DNA of 11,574 bases from Prevotellaceae bacterium (GTDB taxonomy: Bacteria; Bacteroidota; Bacteroidia; Bacteroidales; Bacteroidaceae), in the NCBI GenBank assembly GCA_021204165.1, contig JAJPZU010000112.1, forward strand, positions 1 through 11,574, read 5' to 3'. A program made the position numbers and the translations under genes. Under the pieces are notes generated by a model that was not told where the DNA came from, did no database searches, and was given only the letters and a program-made list of their open reading frames with translations. Position 1 is the stretch's first letter, and each line of letters starts with the position of its first letter. Positions 1-11,574 of this stretch are shown here, piece by piece.

Positions 1-10
1 AAGTTAGGGG

Positions 11-120
11 AGGTGGCGCGTAGCGACGGAGGAGTCTGTCGAAAACACCCACCAACTACACACGAGGAGTCTGCTGAAAACATCCCGCTAAATATACATG
101 AGTAGTCTGTAAATACACTC
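11..120. repeat. Left terminal repeat block. Nt 11-46 (aggtggcgcgtagcgacggaggagtctgtcgaaaac) form an inverted repeat with the last 37 nt of the window. Three direct copies of the core GAGGAGTCTG / GAGTAGTCTG lie at 29-38, 64-73 and 100-109, ~35 bp apart.
   Basis: Direct comparison of the window start with the reverse complement of the window end. The 36/37-nt match has a single 1-nt indel. The two subterminal core copies also have counterparts at the other end. Confidence 0.8.
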
Positions 121-226
121 ACTTAAACAAGAAGCATAATATTCCCACACGGAAACAGAGGGAAAAGAATCAGGGACACCATCACGATGCCCCTGAAAAA
201 CACAATGATTTCCGACAAGTCATACA

Positions 227-1681
227 CTATAAAGGCATGTTGCCATGCTTCTTCGGCGGATTGCTCTGATTCTTGTTACGAGTCATCTCCAGTGCCTGAA
301 TAAGACGTATGCGGGTGTCACACGGCTGTATGATTTCATCAATATAGCCAAGCTGTGCAGCCGGCATAGGATTGGCAAATTTACGTCGGTATTCCTCTAT
401 CGCCGCCGCGCGCTCTTCCGGCGAAGCCTTTCGGTAGAGAATGTTACATGCACCTTCCGCTCCCATCACGGCAATCTCCGCAGTCGGATAAGCTAAATTC
501 ACATCCGCACCGATACATTTGCTGTTCATCACAATGTATGCCCCGCCATAAGCCTTGCGCGTGATGAGTGTGAGCTTCGGTACTGTGGCCTCAGCAAAAG
601 CATACACAATCTTAGCCCCATGACGGATGATGCCGTTGTGCTCCTGATCTGTTCCCGGAAGGAAGCCCGGAACATCCTCCACCGCCACGAGCGGAATATT
701 AAAGCAGTCGCAGAAACGGATAAAGCGGGCAGCCTTGTCGCTTGCGTCAATATCGAGCGCACCGGCAAGGAAGTTTGGCTGATTTGCCACAAAACCCACT
801 GTGCGGCCGGCAAGACGTCCGAATCCTACTACAATGTTCTTGGCAAACTCGGTCATCACCTCGAAGAAATACTGCTGGTCGCATACCGGTTCTATGATAT
901 TGCGTATGTCATACGGCACATTAGGGTCTTCCGGAACCACATTGTCCAGTTCATGGCACACGCGGGTTATCTCATCTGTCACCGGATAGACAGGGGCATC
1001 TTCCATATTATTGGAAGGGATGAATCCAATCAGTTCGCGGATGGTCATCAGAGTCTCTTCCTCATCGCGGCAGACGAAATGGCTCACACCGCTCACACTG
1101 CTATGCGTCATGGCACCTCCGAGTGTCTCCTTGTCAACCGCTTCATTCGTCACGGCACGAACCACGTCCGGACCGGTGACAAACATCTGGCTCTGTCCCT
1201 TCACCATGAGAATGAAATCTGTCAGTGCAGGAGAATAGCACGACCCTCCGGCGCAAGGCCCGAGTATGGCAGAAATCTGCGGAATCACTCCGGATGCCAT
1301 CACGTTTTGCCGGAAGATGTGTGCAAAACCGGTCAGACTTTCCACTCCTTCCTGTATGCGTACACCTCCGGAATCGTTCAGACCGATAATCGGTGCTCCG
1401 TTTTTAAGGGCAAGTTCCTGCACTTTCACAATCTTCTGCGCGTTTGCCGCACTGAGAGAACCTCCCAATACCGCAAAATCAAAAGCATAGACGAAGACAA
1501 TGCGTCCGTCAATCTTGCCGTATCCGGAAATCACACCGTCGCCCTCCACACGCTTCTTGTCCATGCCGAAGTCGTTGCAACGATGCACCACATGCTTGTC
1601 CATTTCCACAAATGTTCCTTTGTCAAGAAGCAAATCTATGCGCTCACGTGCTGTGAGTCTCTGTATCTTATTGTCATTCAT
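227..1681 (-). CDS. Acyl-CoA carboxylase carboxyltransferase subunit, the propionyl-CoA carboxylase beta / methylmalonyl-CoA decarboxylase alpha family.
   Basis: 484-aa ORF whose N-terminus (LTARERIDLLLDKGTFVE...GLNDSGGVRIQEG) and overall layout are typical of the CoA-carboxyltransferase family. It overlaps the upstream carrier-protein gene by 8 bp, which implies translational coupling. Confidence 0.9.
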   Translation of the reverse strand: MNDNKIQRLTARERIDLLLDKGTFVEMDKHVVHRCNDFGMDKKRVEGDGVISGYGKIDGRIVFVYAFDFAVLGGSLSAANAQKIVKVQELALKNGAPIIGLNDSGGVRIQEGVESLTGFAHIFRQNVMASGVIPQISAILGPCAGGSCYSPALTDFILMVKGQSQMFVTGPDVVRAVTNEAVDKETLGGAMTHSSVSGVSHFVCRDEEETLMTIRELIGFIPSNNMEDAPVYPVTDEITRVCHELDNVVPEDPNVPYDIRNIIEPVCDQQYFFEVMTEFAKNIVVGFGRLAGRTVGFVANQPNFLAGALDIDASDKAARFIRFCDCFNIPLVAVEDVPGFLPGTDQEHNGIIRHGAKIVYAFAEATVPKLTLITRKAYGGAYIVMNSKCIGADVNLAYPTAEIAVMGAEGACNILYRKASPEERAAAIEEYRRKFANPMPAAQLGYIDEIIQPCDTRIRLIQALEMTRNKNQSNPPKKHGNMPL

Positions 1682-2192
1682 TGTTTTCGTTCAGTTTTAA
1701 TGTTATCAATGTCTGTCCGACCTTCACACTGTCGCCTTCTGCCACAAGCACAGAAAGCACCTCGCAATCAGCCGCGACCTTATAGTTCGACTGCATCTTC
1801 ATAGCCTCCATAGTCAGTACCGTGTCTCCGGCCTTCAGCTTGTCGCCCTGCTTGCAATACGCTTTTACTATCTTGCACGGCATCGGCGCCGTCACCTGAT
1901 CGCTCTGCACGGCATCCGTCTTTTTCCGCATACGCATGTATTTTGCCTGCGAGTCCAACATGTCAATCTGGTAAGTCGAATAGTTGACATTCACGCGGTA
2001 ATGCTTTCCTGCATCGCTCTTCACCAGCTCTGCCTTGTACGAGTTTCCATTGTGAATAATCGAACATGTTCCGTTTTGCAACATGGCCACATCCACATCA
2101 TAAACTTGTCCGTCTATATCAATCTTCACGTTGTTTCCGTCTTTGCTCAACAGCGTGACATCTACAATCTTGTTTCCAACCTGAATATCCAT
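1674..2192 (-). CDS. Biotin carboxyl carrier protein, i.e. a biotin/lipoyl-attachment domain protein.
   Basis: 172-aa ORF. The C-terminal biotinyl domain carries the canonical EAMKM motif (LTMEAMKMQ), with the biotinyl-Lys codon at ~1797-1799. The gene sits between the biotin carboxylase and carboxyltransferase genes. Confidence 0.9.
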   Translation of the reverse strand: MDIQVGNKIVDVTLLSKDGNNVKIDIDGQVYDVDVAMLQNGTCSIIHNGNSYKAELVKSDAGKHYRVNVNYSTYQIDMLDSQAKYMRMRKKTDAVQSDQVTAPMPCKIVKAYCKQGDKLKAGDTVLTMEAMKMQSNYKVAADCEVLSVLVAEGDSVKVGQTLITLKLNENNE

Positions 2193-2308: not shown

Positions 2309-3835
2309 TTATACTCTCAACACACCCTTCTGCAATCCGAATGTTCTCCAGCGATTGATGGCGGACTGTCCCTGTTTGCATTCAGCCGCCCCACCGGTAT
2401 TTTCCTCCAGATTCATAAGGTAGTCTATGTAGGCGGCAATCACCGCCATCTCTTCGCTCTCGTTCTTGAATCCCGGACGCGGACGCAGACGCTCCGCATT
2501 GCGCTCTATAAAATAGGTGTTGTAGTTTCCTTCACGGAAATCAGGCACATCAATGATGCGGCGCAAGTAGCGTATGTTCGTAGTCAGACCGACAATCTTA
2601 TATTCATACAGCACTCTCCTCATGCGCTCAATGGCATACTGTCTCTCCGTAGCCCAAACGATAAGCTTTCCAATCATCGGATCGTAATGTACGGGAATCT
2701 CATAGCCCTCATATACATAGCTGTCGATTCGGATACCAATGCCGTGAGGCTCTGTGAGCTGAACAATCGTTCCCGGCGAAGGCATGAAGTTATGCTCCGT
2801 ATCCTCCGCACAGATGCGGCACTCTATGGCATGTCCTCTTTGGCGGATATCCTCCTGACGGTAGCCCAGCGGTTGTCCGTCAGCAATAAGAATCTGCTGT
2901 TTCACAAGATCGACGCCGACAACTTCTTCCGTGATAGGATGCTCCACCTGAAGCCGGGTGTTCATTTCAAGGAAATAGAAATGATGGTGCTTATCCACAA
3001 GAAACTCAATGGTGCCGGCACCGATGTAGCCCACCGCTTTTGCCGCAGCCACCGCCTTCTCGCCCATTTCGCGGCGAAGAGTGTCATCAATAAACGGCGA
3101 CGGACTTTCTTCTACTATTTTCTGGTGACGACGCTGCACAGAACATTCGCGGTCGTAAAGATGGATGACATTGCCATGCTTGTCGCCAAGTATCTGAAAC
3201 TCTATGTGGTGAGGCTCCTCGACAAACTTTTCGATATAGACTGTATCATCGCCAAACGAAGCCATCGCCTCGTTCTTTGCCGCATTGTACATCTCTATCA
3301 CATCTTCTTCGCGTTCAATAAGTCTCATGCCTTTTCCGCCGCCACCCATAGAAGCCTTCAGCATCACGGGGAAGCCAATCTTTCGGCACACCTCCAAGGC
3401 TTCCTCGCCACTGCTCAATTGCTCCTGAGTTCCGGGCACAACGGGCACTCCCGCCTTTATCATCTGTATGCGGGCGGAAATCTTGTCGCCCATCAATTCC
3501 ATGGTTTCCGGCTTTGGACCGATGAAGATGATGCCTTCAGCTTCACAACGACGCGCAAACTCGGAATTTTCGGAAAGGAAACCGTATCCCGGGTGAATGG
3601 CATCCACTTTGTGCTTCTTTGCCGCCTCGATAATGTGGTCGATATTCAGGTAGCTGTCTGCCGACGACGCACCGCCGATACACTCTGCTTCGTTTGCAAA
3701 AACGACATGGCGCGACAGACGGTCGGCAGTGCTATAGACAGCCACAGAACGTATGCCCATTTCATAACAAGCACGCATCACCCGAATCGCAATCTCACCG
3801 CGATTGGCAACCAATACTTTTCTTATCATAAACAT
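2309..3835 (-). CDS. accC: Biotin carboxylase subunit of an acetyl/propionyl-CoA carboxylase.
   Basis: 508-aa ORF with the N-terminus KVLVANRGEIAIRVMRA typical of biotin carboxylases. It also has an ATP-grasp glycine-rich loop (MLKASMGGGGKGMR) and a conserved C-terminal biotin carboxylase domain. Confidence 0.93.
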   Translation of the reverse strand: MFMIRKVLVANRGEIAIRVMRACYEMGIRSVAVYSTADRLSRHVVFANEAECIGGASSADSYLNIDHIIEAAKKHKVDAIHPGYGFLSENSEFARRCEAEGIIFIGPKPETMELMGDKISARIQMIKAGVPVVPGTQEQLSSGEEALEVCRKIGFPVMLKASMGGGGKGMRLIEREEDVIEMYNAAKNEAMASFGDDTVYIEKFVEEPHHIEFQILGDKHGNVIHLYDRECSVQRRHQKIVEESPSPFIDDTLRREMGEKAVAAAKAVGYIGAGTIEFLVDKHHHFYFLEMNTRLQVEHPITEEVVGVDLVKQQILIADGQPLGYRQEDIRQRGHAIECRICAEDTEHNFMPSPGTIVQLTEPHGIGIRIDSYVYEGYEIPVHYDPMIGKLIVWATERQYAIERMRRVLYEYKIVGLTTNIRYLRRIIDVPDFREGNYNTYFIERNAERLRPRPGFKNESEEMAVIAAYIDYLMNLEENTGGAAECKQGQSAINRWRTFGLQKGVLRV

Positions 3836-4424
3836 CTATATTTGGTTATACACTTTCTTCCATCTCAAAACAAAATATAATACGATATCAGAAAGCACAC
3901 TCCGAGAACCGCATGACAAAGCGGACAACTCACGAAAGAATACATATCCCAAGAATACATGAATACACAAAAAACACCGATATTCCATCCCGGAATCTCA
4001 GCAAAACAGTATTCTCAGTATTTTTCCGGCAGCTCTTATTCCCGAGAGCGGCATCTGAACATCGGCATCGGCAGGTCTTCTGACTTCTCCATTGGCAGCA
4101 CGGCCTTCCCAACCACAATTATTTACAGCCTCACGGCAATAACAAAGGTCAGTGGCACAACATGATGATGTGTTGCCATAAAAAACAGGAGTTACAGCTA
4201 CGGGTATAGTTACAGACTCACACTGTATTCCCTCTTAGTCTGTCCGTCTTTCCTGAGTGCTTCTTCCTGAAGTCCGCCATTCCCGAAATCAGATTAGGCA
4301 AATTCCAGTCTCAACAAGCCTCAAATGAAGAGGACAAGAACCAAATGCGCGGCAAAAGTACACATAAAATCCGAATCCATGCACTTTTTACCATATTTTT
4401 ACTCCAAACATTCTATGAAACTCT

Positions 4425-4512
4425 TGTGTTTTCTCCGGTATTTCCCCTGTGCTTTTCCGGTATTTTCCCGGTGTTCTTCCTGTATTTTTCCTGTATTTTC
4501 CCGGTTTTTTCC
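4425..4512. repeat. Array of phased short direct repeats with a GTATTT(T)CC(C) core, about four copies at ~11 or ~22-bp spacing, in the flotillin-accC spacer.
   Basis: ccggtatttcccc / ccggtattttcccgg / ctgtatttttcc / tgtattttcccgg read directly from the sequence. The spurious plus-strand ORF 4345..5163 translates these as a repeated IFPVF peptide. Confidence 0.6.
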
Positions 4513-4559
4513 ATAAAAAAGCATGGGACATTCCGCTTCTTTCGGAAATGCCCCATGCA
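4513..4559 (-). terminator. Putative Rho-independent terminator downstream of the flotillin gene.
   Basis: On the minus strand, GCATGGGGCATTTCCG-aaag-aagCGGAATGTCCCATGC forms an imperfect ~14-bp stem, followed by TTTTTTAT. It lies immediately 3' of the flotillin stop at 4579. Confidence 0.55.
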
Positions 4560-4578: not shown

Positions 4579-5955
4579 TCAGTCTTCTACTTCTTCCGCA
4601 TCCACAGCAGGCTCTTCTTTTTTCTTCGCCAGATACTCCGGCAAATTAAGCCCCGCCATATCGAAAAGTTCGTTAAGCGGCGGAACAGACTTCATCAGTC
4701 CGGACACGAAACCGGCTGTAGAGCCTTTTCCGTCTGCACCACCGGCACCATTGTCCCAAACAGTCACATGGTCAATGTTGATACCCTTGACAGCCTCAAC
4801 CTGAGTCTTGACAAGCTCAGGAAGCTTTTCGAGCAGCAACAGCATGTATGCCTTGTTGGCATCTCCTCCGGCAGCCTGAACCATCTTGTCATAACCGGCA
4901 GCCTGCTTCGTCAGCACTTCATACAAACCTTTTGCTTCTGCCTCCATCTTGGCATAAATGGCATCTGCTTCACCCTTTGCATTGACACGCACGCGCTCTG
5001 CTTCCGCCTCCGCTTCGATGATAAGTCGTCTCTTCTCAATCTCCTGCGGAACGAGTACGTTGGCTGTTTCCGTAGAGCGTTCACGTTCTGCACGCGCTTC
5101 CTCAGCCTCGCGTTCTGCCGCGTATGCTTCCTGCAATGCCTTTGCCTGCTGTACTTTTTCTGAGGCTGTGGCTTTACGCTGTGCCTCCGCTTCCTTCTCA
5201 CGGCGATAAGCCTCGGATGCAGCAATGGCAACCTTCGCTTCGTTCTCACCCTTTACGGCTTCCGCATTGGCTTCGGCTGTACGTATGCGGGTTTCTCTCA
5301 CCGCTTCCGCCTTACCGATTTCACCGACTTTATCTTGCTCTGCCACTCTCACTTTTGCCTCATTTATCGCTTTGGCAGCAGCTTCACGTCCGAGAGCCTC
5401 TATATATCCGCTCTCATCTTTTATATCGGTCACGTTCACATTTATCAGACGAAGACCAATCTTTTTCAGTTCCACTTCTACATTGGCAGAAATGCTCTCA
5501 AGAAACTTGTCACGGTCGTTGTTCAGTTCCTCAATACTCATCGTGGCAATTACCAGACGCAACTGTCCGAAAAGAATATCACGCGCCAGTTCCTGTATCT
5601 GTGCAGCACTAAGTCCGAGCAAACGTTCCGCAGCTGCATTCATGCAATCGTGGTCTGTAGATATACCCACAGTGAAGCGGCTTGGCACATCCACACGGAT
5701 GTTCTGTTTGCTGAGCGCATTTGTCAGATTCGCATCAATACTGATTGGTGTAAGGCTAAGATAAGCATAGTCTTCGATTATAGGCCATACGAAAGCACCG
5801 CCGCCATGCACGCAACGTGCCGACGTTTTGCTGCTTTTACTCCCATAAATCACCAAAATTTTGTCCGAAGGACACCGTCTGTAACGATTCACAATGGAAA
5901 CGAACAGCGCAATAGCCACTACAGCGGCAATTACAATAAGATACATAGATTCCAT
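4579..5955 (-). CDS. SPFH / band-7 flotillin-like protein of the YqiK/FloT type.
   Basis: 458-aa ORF with an N-terminal transmembrane helix and an SPFH domain (…ILVIYGSKSS…RVDVPSRFTVGIS…). A long Ala/Glu/Arg/Lys-rich coiled-coil region follows, then a C-terminal acidic tail. This architecture is typical of bacterial flotillins. Confidence 0.88.
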   Translation of the reverse strand: MESMYLIVIAAVVAIALFVSIVNRYRRCPSDKILVIYGSKSSKTSARCVHGGGAFVWPIIEDYAYLSLTPISIDANLTNALSKQNIRVDVPSRFTVGISTDHDCMNAAAERLLGLSAAQIQELARDILFGQLRLVIATMSIEELNNDRDKFLESISANVEVELKKIGLRLINVNVTDIKDESGYIEALGREAAAKAINEAKVRVAEQDKVGEIGKAEAVRETRIRTAEANAEAVKGENEAKVAIAASEAYRREKEAEAQRKATASEKVQQAKALQEAYAAEREAEEARAERERSTETANVLVPQEIEKRRLIIEAEAEAERVRVNAKGEADAIYAKMEAEAKGLYEVLTKQAAGYDKMVQAAGGDANKAYMLLLLEKLPELVKTQVEAVKGINIDHVTVWDNGAGGADGKGSTAGFVSGLMKSVPPLNELFDMAGLNLPEYLAKKKEEPAVDAEEVED

Positions 5956-6044
5956 AATTAATTATTTTAATATCCAACTTTTCAAGATTACAAGACCGGT
6001 TGCCGCATGAAGTGCCCCCTGTCTGAAGAAAGTTTCAAATTCAT

Positions 6045-6137
6045 CTCTCTTGGTCAAAAATTCTCATCCCTTTGGGTCAAAATTTTCATTCCTTTAGTCA
6101 AAAAAATCTCATCCCTTTGGGTCAAAGATTCTCTACC
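6045..6137. repeat. Four tandem ~23-bp direct repeats of tttgggtcaaaaattctcatccc variants. Each contains the dyad TTTG-GGT-CAAA. They sit between the NfeD-like stop and the flotillin start.
   Basis: tctcttggtcaaaaattctcatccc | tttgggtcaaaattttcattcc | tttagtcaaaaaaatctcatccc | tttgggtcaaagattctctacc. The last copy overlaps the stop codon of the upstream gene at 6122-6124. Confidence 0.75.
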
Positions 6138-6700
6138 ACCAGCATTTCTCCGCCGACAACATCAGTAATCCGCACCTTGCGCCCTGTGGTTATCGCCTCA
6201 CCCTCTGTAACCGCATCCAGTTCATGCACGGAACCGTTCACACTTATCTGCACTTTTCCTCTGCCGCTCTTCTTCTCCGGAATGCGCAGATAGACATCTG
6301 CCACACGTCCCTTGCAATATTCAATGCGGAAGGCGCCGTTTGCCTCCAGCTTCTTGGTCTGCTTGTAGATAAAGAAGAACATCCACACAAAAAACAAGCC
6401 TACGGCTGCTGCCACGAGTGCCAGCAACACAGCATTACCCATCAGCGAATGCAGACAGACACCTGCCCAGCCGAAGCCCACAAAGAAATTGACAAGGCTC
6501 CTTATAGAGAACAACGACAGTCCTCCTCCCAAATCCATTGTGTCTCCGGCATCAAAATCGACATCTATGTCGCTTGAATCCATTCCGAACAACGTAAGCA
6601 GAAGCTGTATTACAAACACAGCTGACCCGACAAGTGCACAAACCCAGAACACTTGCTGCATAGTTTCAAGTCCACTGAACCAAATTGAAAAACTCTCCAT
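6122..6700 (-). CDS. NfeD/YqiJ-like membrane protein, the usual operon partner of a flotillin.
   Basis: 192-aa ORF with 3-4 N-terminal hydrophobic helices and a C-terminal soluble ~60-aa beta-rich OB-like tail (GRVADVYLRIPEKKSGRGKVQISVNGSVHELDAVTEGEAITTGRKVRITDV). It lies directly upstream of the flotillin gene on the same strand. Confidence 0.7.
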   Translation of the reverse strand: MESFSIWFSGLETMQQVFWVCALVGSAVFVIQLLLTLFGMDSSDIDVDFDAGDTMDLGGGLSLFSIRSLVNFFVGFGWAGVCLHSLMGNAVLLALVAAAVGLFFVWMFFFIYKQTKKLEANGAFRIEYCKGRVADVYLRIPEKKSGRGKVQISVNGSVHELDAVTEGEAITTGRKVRITDVVGGEMLVVENL

Positions 6701-6899: not shown

Positions 6900-7580
6900 T
6901 TACCATACATATTGCGATGGATATTTTACTTGCATGAAAGTGAAGCCATGCCCCATTACGCTATGGTGAGAAGTCGTCTGTGCTGTCATATTTGATACAA
7001 TACTGCCAAACACCTGCATATTTGCTCTTGCGTCACCGCGTGAAGCAAGAATGGGTGCATCAGGGACATCGTAATCGCGCCATGCAAATAAGCAGACCTT
7101 TTGGGGATATGTCAAGAGATTTACAGCTGTTGTAGATTCTTGAATCAAAACTTCTATCGATTTAAGCATTTGCTGTCTGGCTTTTGCCCGTTTCCCTTCC
7201 GGGTATTTTCCCGTATTAGGCTCAACATATTTTTCCTCATAACAACACAAGTCACAGAATACAACTTTTTCATGTACCATTCCTGTCTCTGTCATTAATA
7301 AATCACATCGGTCTTTAATATTGGCAGTAGTGCCTGCAAATTGTTCGATATACTTTTCAAAACGAACCACAGCAATTTCCTTGCCATTATTATTCACCTT
7401 CAGAACTTCTTTATTGCATTCATTACGGTAAGCCCTTTCAGGCAATTGCTGACATCGTATGCAACTCTTGGAGTCGGTTTCTGAGAAAGGTTCGCGTATT
7501 CTGTAGAGAGGCACTTCTACTTCTTGTGGATTTATGCCATAATGGAGCGGGAATGCCTTTTTAAGAAAAGATTCTATCAT
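6900..7580 (-). CDS. Hypothetical Cys-rich protein that is translationally coupled to the upstream ABC-type ATPase. It is the candidate effector or partner of a two-gene defence-like cassette.
   Basis: 226-aa ORF. Its ATG overlaps the ATPase stop in an ATGA arrangement (7577-7580). It contains CxxC (CIRC) and HxxxxxCDLCC motifs. Composition is AT-rich like the ATPase gene. I recognise no family with confidence; a DUF4276/RloB-type partner is possible but unverified. Confidence 0.6.
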   Translation of the reverse strand: MIESFLKKAFPLHYGINPQEVEVPLYRIREPFSETDSKSCIRCQQLPERAYRNECNKEVLKVNNNGKEIAVVRFEKYIEQFAGTTANIKDRCDLLMTETGMVHEKVVFCDLCCYEEKYVEPNTGKYPEGKRAKARQQMLKSIEVLIQESTTAVNLLTYPQKVCLFAWRDYDVPDAPILASRGDARANMQVFGSIVSNMTAQTTSHHSVMGHGFTFMQVKYPSQYVW

Positions 7581-8737
7581 ACGTCAAGATTTACAAATTC
7601 ATTATAAATGTGACTCATCAACTCTGAGAGGTCGTAAGTATCTACAATCCACCGTCCGCGTTCATTTTGGACAAGCAAATCTTGTATCTCTCCTTCATAT
7701 ATTCGATAAACAGCCGTGTTAGTCCTGCTCAATTGGGCACGTACTGCATTTGTTTGGTTTAGTAAAACATTCAAGTAGTTAAGAATATACGGACTATGGG
7801 TCGCAAGCATCATATTAATTTCTCGATTTTCATCCGCATGTGTTGCCGACAGCACAATTTCTTCTATGAGTTTGCACTGTGCATCAGGGAACAGACTTAA
7901 CTCAGGTTCTTCAATATGGATATATACTTGTTTCTTCAAATCGCTGGGTTCTGCGACAGCCCGAAACTTGTTCAATCTTTCCATATCATACAGATAGTTC
8001 AGGACAGAGCGCTTGAATGCGTCCTTAAATGAAAAGCCATTTGCGCTGGCATAGTTCTTTACAATCAAAGCGACCGATGCTGACGTTTGAATGCCGGATG
8101 AAGCTTCTCGTAAGTCGATTGGCTCATGACGGCTGTCATTTGGAATGACGGTGTAGCGTGTAGGCTTACCTTTGGGGTGGGTTATCTGAAGCTTCATGCC
8201 TATATAGTCCAACGGTATCTCTTTGTCGTTTGCCGATGCTCTGACAAAATCATTGTTTGTTTCATGAAAATAAAATCCCAAGGTTGCACCTGTGTTTTGG
8301 GATGCCTTTTGCGCCCATGTCGGAATGATGTTTCGGTTTTCAGAGATATAGGACACTTTGTTGAACACCAAATGGTCAGAAGATATAATGGGAAGTCTGC
8401 CTAATTTCTTGTTTTCCATCAAGATGGTGTATTCCGTTTCATCATCCATGACTACACTATACCTAATTACACTTGACGAGTCAAGCATTTTATACATTCC
8501 CGTTTCTTTCATCATCGAATCGAAGCGCATCCTGAAAGGAGAGCTTGTTATTTTTGAATGCTTCAAATAAGAACGGATGTTTGCCATTTTGTACAGATAG
8601 CGCATCATGCTTATCAGCTTCATCAGTGTGCTTTTACCACTTGCGGATTCACCAATCAACACAGTGAATGGCAGAAGGCCAAGGTTCTCAATGTGCTTTA
8701 GCGGACCAATATTTTTAATTGTTATAAATTCCTTCAT
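7577..8737 (-). CDS. ABC-type ATPase of the AAA_21/AAA_15 (SMC-like) family with no fused transporter domain. The longest ORF extends to 8815, but the start at MKEFITIKNIG (8737) is more plausible.
   Basis: Walker A GESASGKST at ~8627-8653. An ABC-signature-like SSGIQ motif. A Walker B / D-loop VYIHIEEPELSLFP. An H-loop LATHSPYIL. There is no transmembrane region. GC is low compared with neighbouring genes. Confidence 0.85.
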   Translation of the reverse strand: MKEFITIKNIGPLKHIENLGLLPFTVLIGESASGKSTLMKLISMMRYLYKMANIRSYLKHSKITSSPFRMRFDSMMKETGMYKMLDSSSVIRYSVVMDDETEYTILMENKKLGRLPIISSDHLVFNKVSYISENRNIIPTWAQKASQNTGATLGFYFHETNNDFVRASANDKEIPLDYIGMKLQITHPKGKPTRYTVIPNDSRHEPIDLREASSGIQTSASVALIVKNYASANGFSFKDAFKRSVLNYLYDMERLNKFRAVAEPSDLKKQVYIHIEEPELSLFPDAQCKLIEEIVLSATHADENREINMMLATHSPYILNYLNVLLNQTNAVRAQLSRTNTAVYRIYEGEIQDLLVQNERGRWIVDTYDLSELMSHIYNEFVNLDV

Positions 8738-8956
8738 AATAAAGTTTTGTTTTTCAAACAATCTGATAAAGTATGATTTACCCAATAAAGATACTAATTT
8801 GTACTTCAACAGCAAAAAAAATCCTGTATTGTGACGCTAAAAACGTGAATTTATTACAGAAATGGCACTTTGTCATGTCAAATCAGAAGGTGAAGTGTCA
8901 AAACAGGAGATACAATCCAAACTTATTGTTGCATGAACATCTGGGGCCAGAGCCGC

Positions 8957-9478
8957 CTAATCCTCCAGCCAGTCCTCCGACAAACTGAAGTCCTTGTCCG
9001 CAAACAAGTCCGCCAGCCCGGAAATCTGCTTCAGCCTCAACAGCTCATCCTTGTCCATGCCGATATTGCGCATAATCCACGCATCCGACATGCCCGCAGA
9101 CGTAAGCTCCGACACGATGTGGCTCATCAGCTCTATCGTGTGCGTACCCCTCGCCCTGTTATGACGTATGGTCGAAGCCATTCTGCACGAAATATCCTTG
9201 TCTATCACCGACACGGGAAGCATCCCCTTCTCCCTGTCATAAATTCGTTTCGATGTCTTCATCACCAGATAGCGGTGGAATCCATCTACAATCTCATACT
9301 TGTCCTCGTCCTTCAAGTAATAGCACACGCAAGGCATGGTGTACCCGTCCTCCCATATCGACAGTTCCAACAGCTTCATCTCCGGAGGAGCCACCATGTT
9401 GGGGTTATAATTGTTCGCCACCACTTTCTCGATAGGCACTGCTATCACATTATATACCGGACTCTTAAAATTTTCCAT
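8957..9478 (-). CDS. ibrB: ParB-like nuclease domain protein (IbrB-like).
   Basis: 173-aa ORF with a ParB/Srx-type motif IVDGFHRY (codons ~9272-9286). It overlaps the upstream PAPS-reductase-like gene by 14 bp, which implies translational coupling. Confidence 0.7.
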   Translation of the reverse strand: MENFKSPVYNVIAVPIEKVVANNYNPNMVAPPEMKLLELSIWEDGYTMPCVCYYLKDEDKYEIVDGFHRYLVMKTSKRIYDREKGMLPVSVIDKDISCRMASTIRHNRARGTHTIELMSHIVSELTSAGMSDAWIMRNIGMDKDELLRLKQISGLADLFADKDFSLSEDWLED

Positions 9479-10763
9479 ATTCCAATGCTTTATATTTTCT
9501 CATCACACTTTCTCGTCTGCTCTTCTCATTCTTGGTCAGGGTAAAGCCCATGTACTTACACACATGGTCGTTTCTCAGTATGCAGATGCAGACACGCTTG
9601 AATGTCGGAATCTCCCGAAACTCCGGAATGTCTATGTCGTCAACGTACTCCATCATGACCGGTCTTTTGTTAGTGCGGTATGCCGTGGTCGTCCCAACCG
9701 TAAACTTCACCCCTGCCGCACGCAATTTTTCAATGGTCTCATCGCTCAGACATCCGCCTTTCGTCCTCCAGAATCTCATGCTCACACCTATCTTGTCCAG
9801 ATAATTGCGGCACACCTTCTCCGGCAACGTGTCCAGCAGAAAGTACATGTACTTTTTCCAAGAAAATCCGTGAGGACATTTTATCGACTTCCATCCCATA
9901 GCCGTCGTATTCCCGTAGATGCCGGAAAAATTGACACCATTGACACGGCTGACCATCCGCCCCCACATGTCGGGGTCTATCGCCCGATAGACACTCAGCG
10001 TAGGTATGGCATGAGAAATGAACGGACTTGCCACCCGCTGCCGCCCAATCGGAATGCCCGCACGCGAATAAAGGTCATAAAGCGGATTATAAGTCCATCC
10101 GAATTTTCCGTTTGCCGTCCAGATGTCAGATGTTTTCCAGTCATAAAGCGGATAAGCGTTATACACATGTGCAGCAAGCTTATGTGTCCATTTGTAATGC
10201 GAAAGCCGCCGGTAGTTCTTGGCATTGTGTATGGCCGTCCACCGGTTAAAACTCTCCTGCGTCCTTATGCCTACAAGACAACATATACGTTCACATTTCT
10301 TCCGGTTGCGCAGCCAAGGGGCGAAAAGATACTGGAAGTCATAGTCCCACAAGGCATCAGTGAAGAAATTGAAATCGGCTGCCGTATAAGCCCCCTCAGG
10401 CATTTCCCTCACCCATATATCCTTCTCCGATTCTCCCCAAGGTCTCCAATACGACTGGTGCATGGATGTACAGGTCATGACTTTGAAGGGCACGCAACAA
10501 TGGTACACCTCCAGAATGTCGCGATTCTCCGACAGGGTACGGCGCACATACTCCGTGGTCTGCCGGTACTGCACCTCGTAGTCCATGTGGAACACACCCA
10601 GCTTACGTCCCGGAGCATACCTCCGTATATAGTCTATGCACAGATTCAACAACACTCCGCTGTCCTTGCCACCCGAAAACGAGACATACACATAATCGAA
10701 ATAATCGAATATGATCTTCAGCCTCCTTTGCACTGCTTCATAAACATCAAGTTGCCTAATCAT
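9465..10763 (-). CDS. ibrA: Phosphoadenosine-phosphosulfate reductase family PP-loop protein. It is DndC/IbrA-like, with a PAPS_reduct domain and a C-terminal extension.
   Basis: 432-aa ORF with the PP-loop SFSGGKDS near the N-terminus (~10659-10682). Its size and C-terminal region fit the IbrA/DUF3440-type proteins that pair with ParB-like IbrB. Confidence 0.8.
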   Translation of the reverse strand: MIRQLDVYEAVQRRLKIIFDYFDYVYVSFSGGKDSGVLLNLCIDYIRRYAPGRKLGVFHMDYEVQYRQTTEYVRRTLSENRDILEVYHCCVPFKVMTCTSMHQSYWRPWGESEKDIWVREMPEGAYTAADFNFFTDALWDYDFQYLFAPWLRNRKKCERICCLVGIRTQESFNRWTAIHNAKNYRRLSHYKWTHKLAAHVYNAYPLYDWKTSDIWTANGKFGWTYNPLYDLYSRAGIPIGRQRVASPFISHAIPTLSVYRAIDPDMWGRMVSRVNGVNFSGIYGNTTAMGWKSIKCPHGFSWKKYMYFLLDTLPEKVCRNYLDKIGVSMRFWRTKGGCLSDETIEKLRAAGVKFTVGTTTAYRTNKRPVMMEYVDDIDIPEFREIPTFKRVCICILRNDHVCKYMGFTLTKNEKSRRESVMRKYKALEYGKF

Positions 10764-11164
10764 TCCTTACGTCCTCCGGCATATACCATCTTGTCATAAT
10801 TCTTCCATTCCCTATGTGTCCTGAAGCCGTTGCGTGCAAAGTCAGCCACATGACGCTTGTGTACGACTGCGGTCAGCACAGTCCTGCTCACCGACTCCGC
10901 CACCACCCTGTCGAGCAGAGCATCAATGAGCAAAGAATCGTCGCCCTTGATATAATAATTGTCAATACAGGCTTCACGCTCTTTCTCCTTTACCGGAATG
11001 AATCCGATTACCTCCTTTTTCTCTATGGCCACATACCATTTGTGATGACGGGAGGTCTTGAAGGGATAATTGTTGTTGAGCCTCAACACTGCCGCATTCA
11101 TCACCAGCGGTGCCACCAGCTCATAAAGGCGGGAAGATGTGCCTTCTAAAATCTCAATATTCAT
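10760..11164 (-). CDS. Small protein, possibly with a GNAT-like acetyltransferase fold. It is the first gene of the coupled three-gene operon.
   Basis: 134-aa ORF whose stop overlaps the downstream PAPS-reductase-like gene start by 4 bp. Its beta-alpha pattern is loosely GNAT-like (WYVAIEKKEVIGFI…YYIKGDDSLLIDALLDRV…FARNGF). The fold assignment is tentative. Confidence 0.5.
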   Translation of the reverse strand: MNIEILEGTSSRLYELVAPLVMNAAVLRLNNNYPFKTSRHHKWYVAIEKKEVIGFIPVKEKEREACIDNYYIKGDDSLLIDALLDRVVAESVSRTVLTAVVHKRHVADFARNGFRTHREWKNYDKMVYAGGRKE

Positions 11165-11320: not shown

Positions 11321-11434
11321 CGACAAATACCTTTTTTATTCTACCCGATGTCATATTTTTTACAAGAAGAATACTTAGATACTGTTTTTTAGAAGCCGTT
11401 TGTTTAAATGAATGTATTCAACAATTTTAAGCTT

Positions 11435-11574
11435 GTCTATTTAACGGACTCCTCATGTGTATTTAGTGGAATGTTTTTATATTTGGTGGGGTGTTCTCGG
11501 CAGACTCCTCATGTGTGAATTGTATGTGTTAGCAGACGTTTTCGACAGACTCCTCCGTCGCTACCGCGCCACCT
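11435..11574. repeat. Right terminal repeat block, the inverted partner of 11-120. The terminal 37 nt (11538-11574) are the reverse complement of 11-46 apart from one extra G. On the complementary strand, GAGGAGTCTG / GAGGAGTCCG copies begin 20, 65 and 121 nt from the terminus, so the spacing is 45 and 56 nt versus 35 and 36 nt on the left.
   Basis: Reverse complement of 11435-11574 aligned by eye to 11-140. The gactcctc motifs are visible at ~11447, ~11501 and ~11546 on the plus strand. Confidence 0.8.

Follow-up and report, generated by a model that had tools for sequence, protein, structure and literature searches.

The window analysed here, a stretch of 11,574 nt, is a complete contig of a Prevotellaceae MAG. 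It carries ten genes, all of them on the minus strand (Table 1), and the gene block contains a low-GC, defence-like insertion. Besides the acyl-CoA carboxylase operon with its B12 riboswitch, the content can be summed up as flotillin/NfeD, a candidate defence pair and an IbrA/IbrB-like pair. The 134-aa protein corresponds to the NCBI MAG protein LUD00_05640 [Prevotellaceae bacterium]. No transposase, integrase, recombinase, rve, DDE or Mu domain was encountered in a Pfam scan of the ten genes, and no further plausible ORF was found in the gap between 3.8 and 4.65 kb. The cobalamin riboswitch was the only match of the window to Rfam 15.

Table 1. Genes, riboswitch and repeat parts along the window, in order of position
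Feature	Position	Strand	Remark
hp1 loop and 3' half (AAGTT/TTAGGGGAGG)	1-13	+	full copies read CTCCTCCCCTAAGTTAGGGGAGGTGGCGCGTAGCGACGGAGGAGTCTG
inner, most conserved left-arm part (hp1 end, hp2, first motif copy)	11-46	+	matches the reverse complement of 11538-11574
hp2, short hairpin GGCGC-GTA-GCGAC	15-27	+	one G.A mismatch in the window variant; pairing kept in other variants
left motif copy 1, GACGGAGGAGTCTGTCGAAAACACCCACC	25-53	+	position-weight-matrix score 46.8; exact core
left motif copy 2, ACACGAGGAGTCTGCTGAAAACATCCCGC	60-88	+	exact core
left motif copy 3, degenerate, ACATGAGTAGTCTGTAAATACACTCAC	96-122	+	one core mismatch; aligns with the third motif of other arms
degenerate outer terminus of left arm, TTAAACAAGAAGC	123-135	+	alignment with right arm and other arms
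acyl-CoA carboxylase carboxyltransferase	227-1681	-	
biotin carrier protein	1674-2192	-	
biotin carboxylase	2309-3835	-	
cobalamin (B12) riboswitch, ahead of acyl-CoA carboxylase operon	4053-4296		Rfam match
flotillin	4579-5955	-	
192-aa membrane protein	6122-6700	-	
226-aa protein	6900-7580	-	
AAA_21/AAA_15 ATPase	7577-8815	-	
ParB_N protein	8957-9478	-	
PAPS_reduct+DUF3440 protein	9465-10763	-	
134-aa protein	10760-11164	-	
right-arm outer terminus (reverse complement ...CATTTAAACAAACGGCTTCT) and degenerate half-motif TGTTGAATACATTC	11391-11429	-	resembles TTTAAAACAGYTTC(T) of complete copies
right motif copy 3 (reverse complement ACATGAGGAGTCCGTTAAATAGACAAGCT)	11430-11458	-	core with one mismatch
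right motif copy 2 (reverse complement ACATGAGGAGTCTGCCGAGAACACCCCAC)	11486-11514	-	core match
right motif copy 1 (reverse complement GACGGAGGAGTCTGTCGAAAACGTCTGCT)	11531-11559	-	core match
right hp2 (reverse complement GGCGC-GGTA-GCGAC) and first 4 nt toward hp1	11557-11574	-	compared with complete copies

The two extremities of the window are inversely related. The left end reads AAGTTAGGGG followed by AGGTGGCGCGTAGCGACGGAGGAGTCTGTCGAAAAC (nt 11-46), the latter being the reverse complement of nt 11538-11574 except for one inserted G, and the right end closes with GTTTTCGACAGACTCCTCCGTCGCTACCGCGCCACCT. The perfect stretch covers 27 nt (20-46 versus 11538-11564), and the near-perfect inverted repeat between nt 11-46 and the last 37 nt that was announced in a preliminary description of this DNA is confirmed, with a single 1-nt indel. 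That description also mentioned three occurrences of a core at the left end, some 35 bp apart. Exact copies of the core GAGGAGTCTG lie at 29-38 and 64-73, whereas 100-109 reads GAGTAGTCTG and counts only with one mismatch; the measured spacing was indeed 35 and 36 nt. The right end displays a core triplet as well, which the preliminary description did not contain: it lies on the minus strand at 11546-11555, 11501-11510 and 11445-11454, the last with one mismatch, and is spaced by 45 and 56 nt. Six matches with at most one mismatch were counted against 0.54 expected by chance, and six was reached in none of 200 shuffles. The true repeat unit is longer than 10 nt, namely about 22 to 26 nt, and reads (ACAT)GAGGAGTCTGYYGAAAACAYCCAC. 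Zero copies were detected by the motif matrix in the interior of the window.

Nucleotides 1-135 and 11391-11574 each form a single arm of a larger repeat, the inner side of which borders the contig edge; the outer terminus is reached approximately 130 to 185 nt inward. Likeness of the left arm to other copies stops at its outer terminus (BLAST similarity already ends around nt 116), and the end of the carboxyltransferase gene lies 92 nt inward of this terminus. Between the right arm and the first gene of the window lies the conserved promoter-proximal sequence GGTATTTGTCGTAYTTTTGCATAG. The contig stops just before CCCCTAACTTAGGGGAGG at its right end; the hp1 5' half CCTCCCCTAA and the element centre of the left copy are situated beyond the contig start. 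For the source genome, both copies are known from one arm each, their centre and second arm falling beyond the contig. The two arms are no more alike to one another than either is to copies found elsewhere, and they differ in spacing and in spacer sequence.

Complete copies in other contigs displayed, from the outside to the inside, a terminus GAARCTGTTTTAAA, one to three 22-nt motifs, hp2, hp1, a centre and the mirror arm. The 22-nt motif is (ACAT)GAGGAGTCTGTCGAAAACAYCCAC and recurs at irregular intervals of 35 to 56 nt. The outer inverted termini are AGAARCTGTTTTAAA and TTTAAAACAGYTTCT, and the arms mirror each other across 50 to 130 nt. The hairpin hp1 has 10 bp (CCTCCCCTAA-N-TTAGGGGAGG), and hp2 occurs among the copies as GGCGC-GTA-GCGAC, GTCGC-TTT-GCGAC or GTCAC-GAA-GTGAC. 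The centre spans about 70 nt, and about 50 nt in one genome. Elements range from 70 to 400 bp: complete copies measure 250 to 400 bp, and minimal ones with the same termini 70 to 100 bp, two of which (L020 and L070) consist of the termini and one motif only. Further copies are truncated, rearranged or interrupted by nested insertions. Whole elements are exemplified by L084 (2245-2493), L017 (5990-6262), L064 (2842-3145) and L082 (11173-11421). The centre is always located at the GGGGAGG side and the outer boundary at the CATCCAC...TTTAAAACAGYTTC side; in every small cluster identified with the motif matrix, a reverse motif is followed by the centre and then by a forward motif, the opposite arrangement being absent.

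Both hairpins displayed compensatory changes. One pair of hp1 was C-G in 11 arms and U-A in 11 others, with zero mismatches, and one pair of hp2 was G-C in 22 cases and A-U in two. In three elements (L083, L026 and L077) the two arms carried different hp1 alleles, each still self-complementary. This covariation favours local stem-loops, in single-stranded DNA, cruciform or RNA, over a simple pairing of arm with arm. Thermodynamic folding alone predicted a long arm-to-arm hairpin, with z = -14 to -19. The orientation of the centre was fixed relative to a nested CAATTGCGG... insertion in all three copies marked by it (L036, L010 and L093), and it was identical at one locus shared by two genomes (L036 and L088).

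About 34 copies of the element were gathered from at least three Bacteroidales genomes. When genomes were scanned with a degenerate pattern, copies were located on at least eight contigs of the Bacteroidaceae MAG RGIG8745. Three contigs of a MAG labelled as Roseburia carried copies too; the same contigs encode the Bacteroidales genes OmpH and DUF3575, and a mobile element crossing phyla was therefore rejected. The pattern of the first genome-wide scan was too degenerate, most of its 71 matches being due to chance and lying in unrelated phyla. With a pattern specific for the arm, 14 metagenome loci were retained, 13 of which came from one pocket-mouse (rodent) gut co-assembly. More than 20 other loci contain a stretch of 37 to 47 nt with 88-100 % identity to the segment at nt 11-46. 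Being multi-copy, the sequence is not the single-copy palindrome that the preliminary description had named as the refutation of its own reading.

BLAST of the window against all retrieved loci matched only nt 1-116 and 11438-11574, and the flanks of the copies were unrelated from one locus to another. All 34 inspected copies were intergenic, often at 5 to 95 nt from gene ends, and none was overlapped by an ORF of at least 120 aa. Copies were found upstream as well as downstream of genes, in either orientation. The arm, the hairpin and the whole element were without match in IMG/VR, PLSDB and INPHARED, and a phage or plasmid origin was rejected on these viral, plasmid and phage collections.

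The contig itself appears to have been broken at these repeats. Five Logan short-read contigs from four sequencing runs cover the same locus at 99.8-100 % identity and stop at window positions 11528, 11464, 11545, 11513 and 33. All these independent ends fall inside the arms, as would be expected of a multi-copy repeat. The two contig ends look mutually inverse because the element is palindromic and the assembler stopped within the inner arms of two copies. As the centre lies on the hp1 side, nt 11-46 belong to the inner part of an arm, and the bodies of both elements fall beyond the window, whose interior is flanking DNA and not cargo. Very probably, then, the two ends are arms of two separate copies of a palindromic repeat that is dispersed in Prevotellaceae and related Bacteroidales and at which assembly broke, and the 11.3 kb between them are ordinary chromosome. 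On the right-hand side, the Logan contigs L094 and L095 with the neighbouring DUF5106 gene of the same sample extend only 95 nt upstream of that gene before they break, short of an arm. As the contig starts in a hairpin loop, a hairpin telomere or a circular molecule was considered too; both are disfavoured by the synteny of relatives and by the differing break positions.

This synteny was observed in L091 (GCA_011262095.1), a 133-kb contig of a relative with the same gene order and with 82 % identity for the 134-aa protein. Its gene block is located between DUF5106/MatE and PepSY-like genes, and the repeat is present at neither border; the carboxyltransferase gene is followed by only 126 nt with a terminator hairpin. 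L093 has the DUF5106 context upstream in common with L091 and, ahead of its first gene, is likewise devoid of the repeat; one copy is present elsewhere in its block, after a ParB-like gene. Both relatives lack the element at the orthologous sites; as identity is only ~80 %, insertion boundaries are approximate. In the near-identical genome pairs L036/L088 and L064/L090 the element was present in both members, and no near-identical genome with a precise empty site was found. Since relatives have the genes in the same context without arms, the block has kept its ancestral position. Most simply, small elements were inserted into two intergenic regions of an otherwise stable chromosomal block.

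Taken as a whole, the window is best explained by two MITE-like repeat copies flanking chromosomal genes, an explanation that we consider probable. For the element itself we lean, with limited confidence, towards a non-autonomous DNA transposon (MITE). The outer inverted termini are conserved among arm variants that otherwise differ, and homology between copies ends there; derivatives with internal deletions are numerous, and the lack of the element at orthologous sites of relatives points the same way. The elements are smaller than ~500 bp and devoid of coding capacity, possess terminal inverted repeats, and are dispersed in many copies over unrelated contexts, as are MITEs. Direct matches of 3 bp flanked three of the four copies with both canonical termini (TGA for L082, TTA for L084 and ATA for L070), and in the fourth one, L020, a GTA match needs a 1-nt slip. 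A target-site duplication, which the preliminary description proposed to look for, may thus exist at whole copies elsewhere, though four copies are a small sample; the tips and flanks of a window-sized unit lie beyond the contig. On this reading, the conserved termini, the iterated 22-nt motif or both would be recognised by a transposase of external origin, which would insert the element into AT-rich intergenic DNA with duplications of roughly 3 bp; iterated motifs are the type of feature that may bind several transposase protomers. Neither an autonomous element nor a transposase with the same termini was found in ~300 kb of related loci, and no transposase domain occurs among the window ORFs.

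Bacterial MITEs are the closest kind of known element. Correia elements of Neisseria and BrickBuilt of Porphyromonas gingivalis (PMC4596501) are similarly small and non-coding, with terminal inverted repeats, tens of copies per genome, intergenic sites, deleted or rearranged variants and short flanking duplications. Also a Bacteroidales element, BrickBuilt carries a unit of ~23 nt iterated in tandem (PMC4596501), whereas the 22-nt motif of the present element is irregularly spaced (35 to 56 nt) and mirrored on the two arms. Neither of them shares sequence similarity with the element described here, which is distinguished by two GC-rich local hairpins and a conserved centre of ~70 nt. Correia elements duplicate TA, in contrast to the approximately 3 bp encountered here.

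REPINs and REP doublets (PMC3116915, PMC3337134, PMC3733652) share other traits with the element: inverted hairpin repeats around a spacer, a long hairpin in single strands, intergenic and multi-copy occurrence, the possibility of heterodimer arms, and a head-to-head arrangement. Following this model, inverted hairpin repeats would be multiplied via a single-stranded DNA stage by an HUH tyrosine transposase (RAYT, related to IS200/IS605) encoded in single copy, which recognises the hairpins, in place of a DDE enzyme acting on the termini. The two inverted arms with local hairpins of their own around a spacer fit such a process, as do the differing yet self-complementary hp1 alleles within one element, the compensatory pairs of both hairpins and the very strong single-strand folding. 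The tetranucleotides CGTC and GTAG, moreover, adjoin hp2 and are the tags of two REP superfamilies (PMC3733652). The hairpin geometry nevertheless fits neither the GTAG nor the CGTC families, with a 5-bp stem in hp2 and a 10-bp stem and a loop of 1 to 3 nt in hp1; CGTC families are described with stems of 8 to 9 bp, loops of 4 to 5 nt, AT at the first stem positions and a CCA tail (PMC3733652). The element is also larger than REPINs, and its additional outer arms, composed of iterated motifs and conserved inverted termini, as well as its apparent 3-bp target duplications are foreign to them. In the retrieved loci, none of the copies had a RAYT gene in its vicinity. As for the covariation, only two hp1 alleles exist, and they may reflect one event followed by recombination. 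A REPIN-like origin is consequently regarded as unlikely.

The elements are further associated, in related genomes, with a repeat of ~830 nt without ORF, called 'U', of which at least ten copies with 75-80 % identity to each other were found; this association is not a feature of the window. 'U' is flanked on both sides by the motif clusters of the elements, and its interior contains a series of CAGTGCGCTG palindromes about every 22 nt. It may be imagined that a modular, hairpin-bearing and non-autonomous Prevotellaceae family, of which both hairpins and termini would be recognised, mobilises in paired copies the DNA in between, that is 'U' and potentially gene blocks like the present one with its defence-like cassette. 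This scenario is distinctly unlikely, and nothing indicates that the block of the window was mobilised by paired copies.

A further possibility, which we hold to be very unlikely, is that the palindrome is not currently mobile and is kept in intergenic DNA for a host function, either as a structured RNA or as a module for protein binding, insulation or regulation. The strictly intergenic placement close to gene ends, the conserved hairpins with compensatory change, the conserved centre and its fixed orientation relative to the arm-specific insertion would agree with this, and promoter activity is known for the Bacteroidales MITE BrickBuilt (PMC4596501). The placement on either side of genes and in either orientation, the many truncated or rearranged derivatives and the vacant orthologous sites of relatives argue against it, and no terminator-like T-run follows the hairpins. 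Rfam was without match for the element at gathering thresholds in six loci with complete copies, where a tRNA was the only match, and at E<=1 in one locus. A known RNA family at the window ends or in complete copies was rejected on this basis; a tRNA or tmRNA identity was rejected too, a search for these genes having given none.

The preliminary description had likened the left end to that of a transposon, in the manner of Tn7-, Mu-, IS21- or some Tn3-like ends. The architecture it described is real to the extent that the sequence is multi-copy and forms inverted arms with iterated subterminal motifs; the unit and the polarity assigned to it are wrong. Each end displays three mirrored copies of the motif, the subterminal-repeat arrangement of the Tn7/Mu/IS21 class, for which a transposase-binding role is putative, and the several ~22-bp sites in the same orientation per end, mirrored and irregularly spaced, are alike as well. 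The window could accordingly be viewed as a mobile unit, be it an 11.5-kb Tn7-, Mu- or IS21-like transposon or a composite transposon mobilised by two small elements. The low-GC insertion inside the block and the topology of 'U', identical to that of the window interior, might speak for it, as pairs of elements might move intervening DNA.

Several observations contradict a mobile window. Neither a transposase, an integrase nor a TnsB/MuA/IstA-like domain is encoded between the ends, the unit proper has 70 to 400 bp and no ORF, and the polarity of the window is inside-out compared with complete copies, in which hp1 faces the interior. The tips of Tn7-, Mu- and IS21-like elements are TG...CA, and those of whole small copies GAARC...; Tn7 and Mu generate duplications of 5 bp as opposed to ~3 bp here, read at the flanks of whole small copies only. 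A composite transposon made of two MITE or IS copies has the same topology, but the segment occupies the same context in relatives without copies. The arms are moreover unmatched in spacing and spacer sequence, and assembly breaks account for the contig ends. The mobile unit is already largely refuted by synteny and must be judged highly improbable, and nothing links the ends to the Tn7, Mu, IS21 or Tn3 families. GGGG...CGAAAAC resembles the 38-bp inverted repeat of Tn3, but the spacing differs.

Invertible promoters are common in Bacteroidales, and inverted repeats do flank a segment of ~70 nt here, but an hp1-flanked centre flipped as a DNA switch by a site-specific recombinase can practically be dismissed, given its constant orientation at the L036/L088 locus and relative to the nested insertion, the lack of an adjacent recombinase gene and a window without centre. 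A CRISPR-like array was rejected on account of the irregular spacing of 35 to 56 nt, the mirrored orientation, the degenerate units and the absence of cas genes.

The window is chiefly of value as a caution: when a metagenome contig carries inverted repeats at its two extremities, the cause may be no more than an assembly halted by two copies of a palindromic repeat. Neither a transposon nor a mobile island should be annotated for the 11.5-kb block. The repeat family may serve as a marker of assembly gaps or for strain typing in Prevotellaceae, and as a lead to a partner transposase. No description of it was found in the literature on the core sequence and on Prevotella MITEs. Bacteroidota genomes are rich in MITE-like elements (PMC11602168), and the family is a modest addition to this catalogue. 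DDE-type MITEs do not typically require local hairpins that show compensatory changes, which speaks against the MITE reading. The nested hairpins and the association with the non-coding repeat of ~830 nt, neither of them lying in the window, are mildly unusual for such a family.

Sequences distinct from the palindromic element were repeatedly found beside or inside its copies on loci fetched from other contigs and genomes (L-handles in the table). One of these, 'U', was a repeat of ~830 nt devoid of any ORF and represented by at least ten copies, those from different loci being 74-80% identical. It contained palindromes of the CAGTGCGCTG type spaced by ~22 nt as well as a TTGATAATCAA palindrome. 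Clusters of the 22-nt motif that is iterated in the arms of the element adjoined it, either on a single side or on both. 'U' had no match in Rfam and was absent from the window.

Positions of repeats, insertions and gene sets in the window and in fetched loci
Feature	Sequence	Positions	Strand
'U' repeat	L064	3541-4390	
'U' repeat	L029	6961-7799	
'U' repeat	L070	4194-5017	
'U' repeat, two copies	L082	965-1779 and 11590-12278	
'U' repeat	L031	5580-6391	
'U' repeat	L088	3821-4520	
600-650 nt non-coding repeat	L023	1850-2490	
600-650 nt non-coding repeat	L026	772-1410	-
600-650 nt non-coding repeat	L093	7530-7957	
'X' sequence	L017	7155-7301	
'X' sequence	L085	1-54	
CAATTGCGGAATAGGAGCAATTGGGGAG... 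insertion	L036	7262-7300	
CAATTGCGGAATAGGAGCAATTGGGGAG... insertion	L088	3575-3615	
CAATTGCGGAATAGGAGCAATTGGGGAG... insertion	L010	3268-3310	
CAATTGCGGAATAGGAGCAATTGGGGAG... insertion	L093	7455-7500	
Cobalamin riboswitch	window	4053-4296	-
11-nt-period array	window	4430-4517	
TTCATCCCTTTGGGTCAAAAAT repeats	window	6040-6126	
ATPase and 226-aa protein	window	6900-8815	-
IbrA/IbrB-like set	window	8957-11164	-

Hairpin hp1, located beside the centre of the element, was itself interrupted in several copies. Sequence 'X', which starts with (A)CTACTCTTTGTACACATCTC... and is unrelated to the element, split it in two different copies; contig breaks fell within 'X', which may be another mobile element targeting hp1. 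A nested insertion of 28-45 nt (CAATTGCGGAATAGGAGCAATTGGGGAG...) split the same hairpin at four loci, the L036 and L088 carriers corresponding to one locus in two genomes. Wherever the centre was readable (L036, L010 and L093), this insertion was located on its GGTAA side. In one genome, the element was followed by a further non-coding repeat of 600-650 nt, whose copies were 80-84% identical, started with GACAATTTGATATGTTAAA and held a long hairpin (CTCCGTAGAATCGCG...CGCGATTCTACGGAG).

Contigs L010, L023 and L026 (GCA MAG 'Roseburia sp. NALB_7823_13') and L093 were deposited as Roseburia (Firmicutes). Their genes (OmpH, DUF3575 and others) were of Bacteroidales type, and the same protein was assigned to Bacteroides sp. 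in one source and to Roseburia sp. in another. The Roseburia label looks like an error of binning or labelling.

The window also carried a two-gene insertion of low GC content (0.36-0.43), which was missing from the otherwise syntenic contig of relative L091. It encoded a 226-aa protein without family match and an AAA_21/AAA_15 ATPase, for which PADLOC gave PDC-M29A, a candidate defence protein, as the top match (E = 2e-26). A conserved set of three genes encoded a 134-aa protein (~250 homologues, of 126-193 aa among the matches listed), an IbrA-like PAPS_reduct+DUF3440 protein with weak similarity to BrxP/DndC, and an IbrB-like ParB_N protein.

The cobalamin riboswitch (RF00174) scored 71.6 bits, the gathering threshold being 31.5, and an operon encoding biotin carboxylase, biotin carrier and carboxyltransferase lay immediately downstream. 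A biotin-dependent acyl-CoA carboxylase is, to our knowledge, an unusual target of B12 control. Short direct repeats occupied two intergenic gaps: three to four TTCATCCCTTTGGGTCAAAAAT copies of 22-23 nt each were situated in the 166-nt gap from the gene of a 192-aa membrane protein to the flotillin gene, and eight TTTTCCNGTAT-like units were arranged head-to-tail in the gap separating the riboswitch from the end of the flotillin gene, with a period of 11 nt that corresponds to one helical turn.
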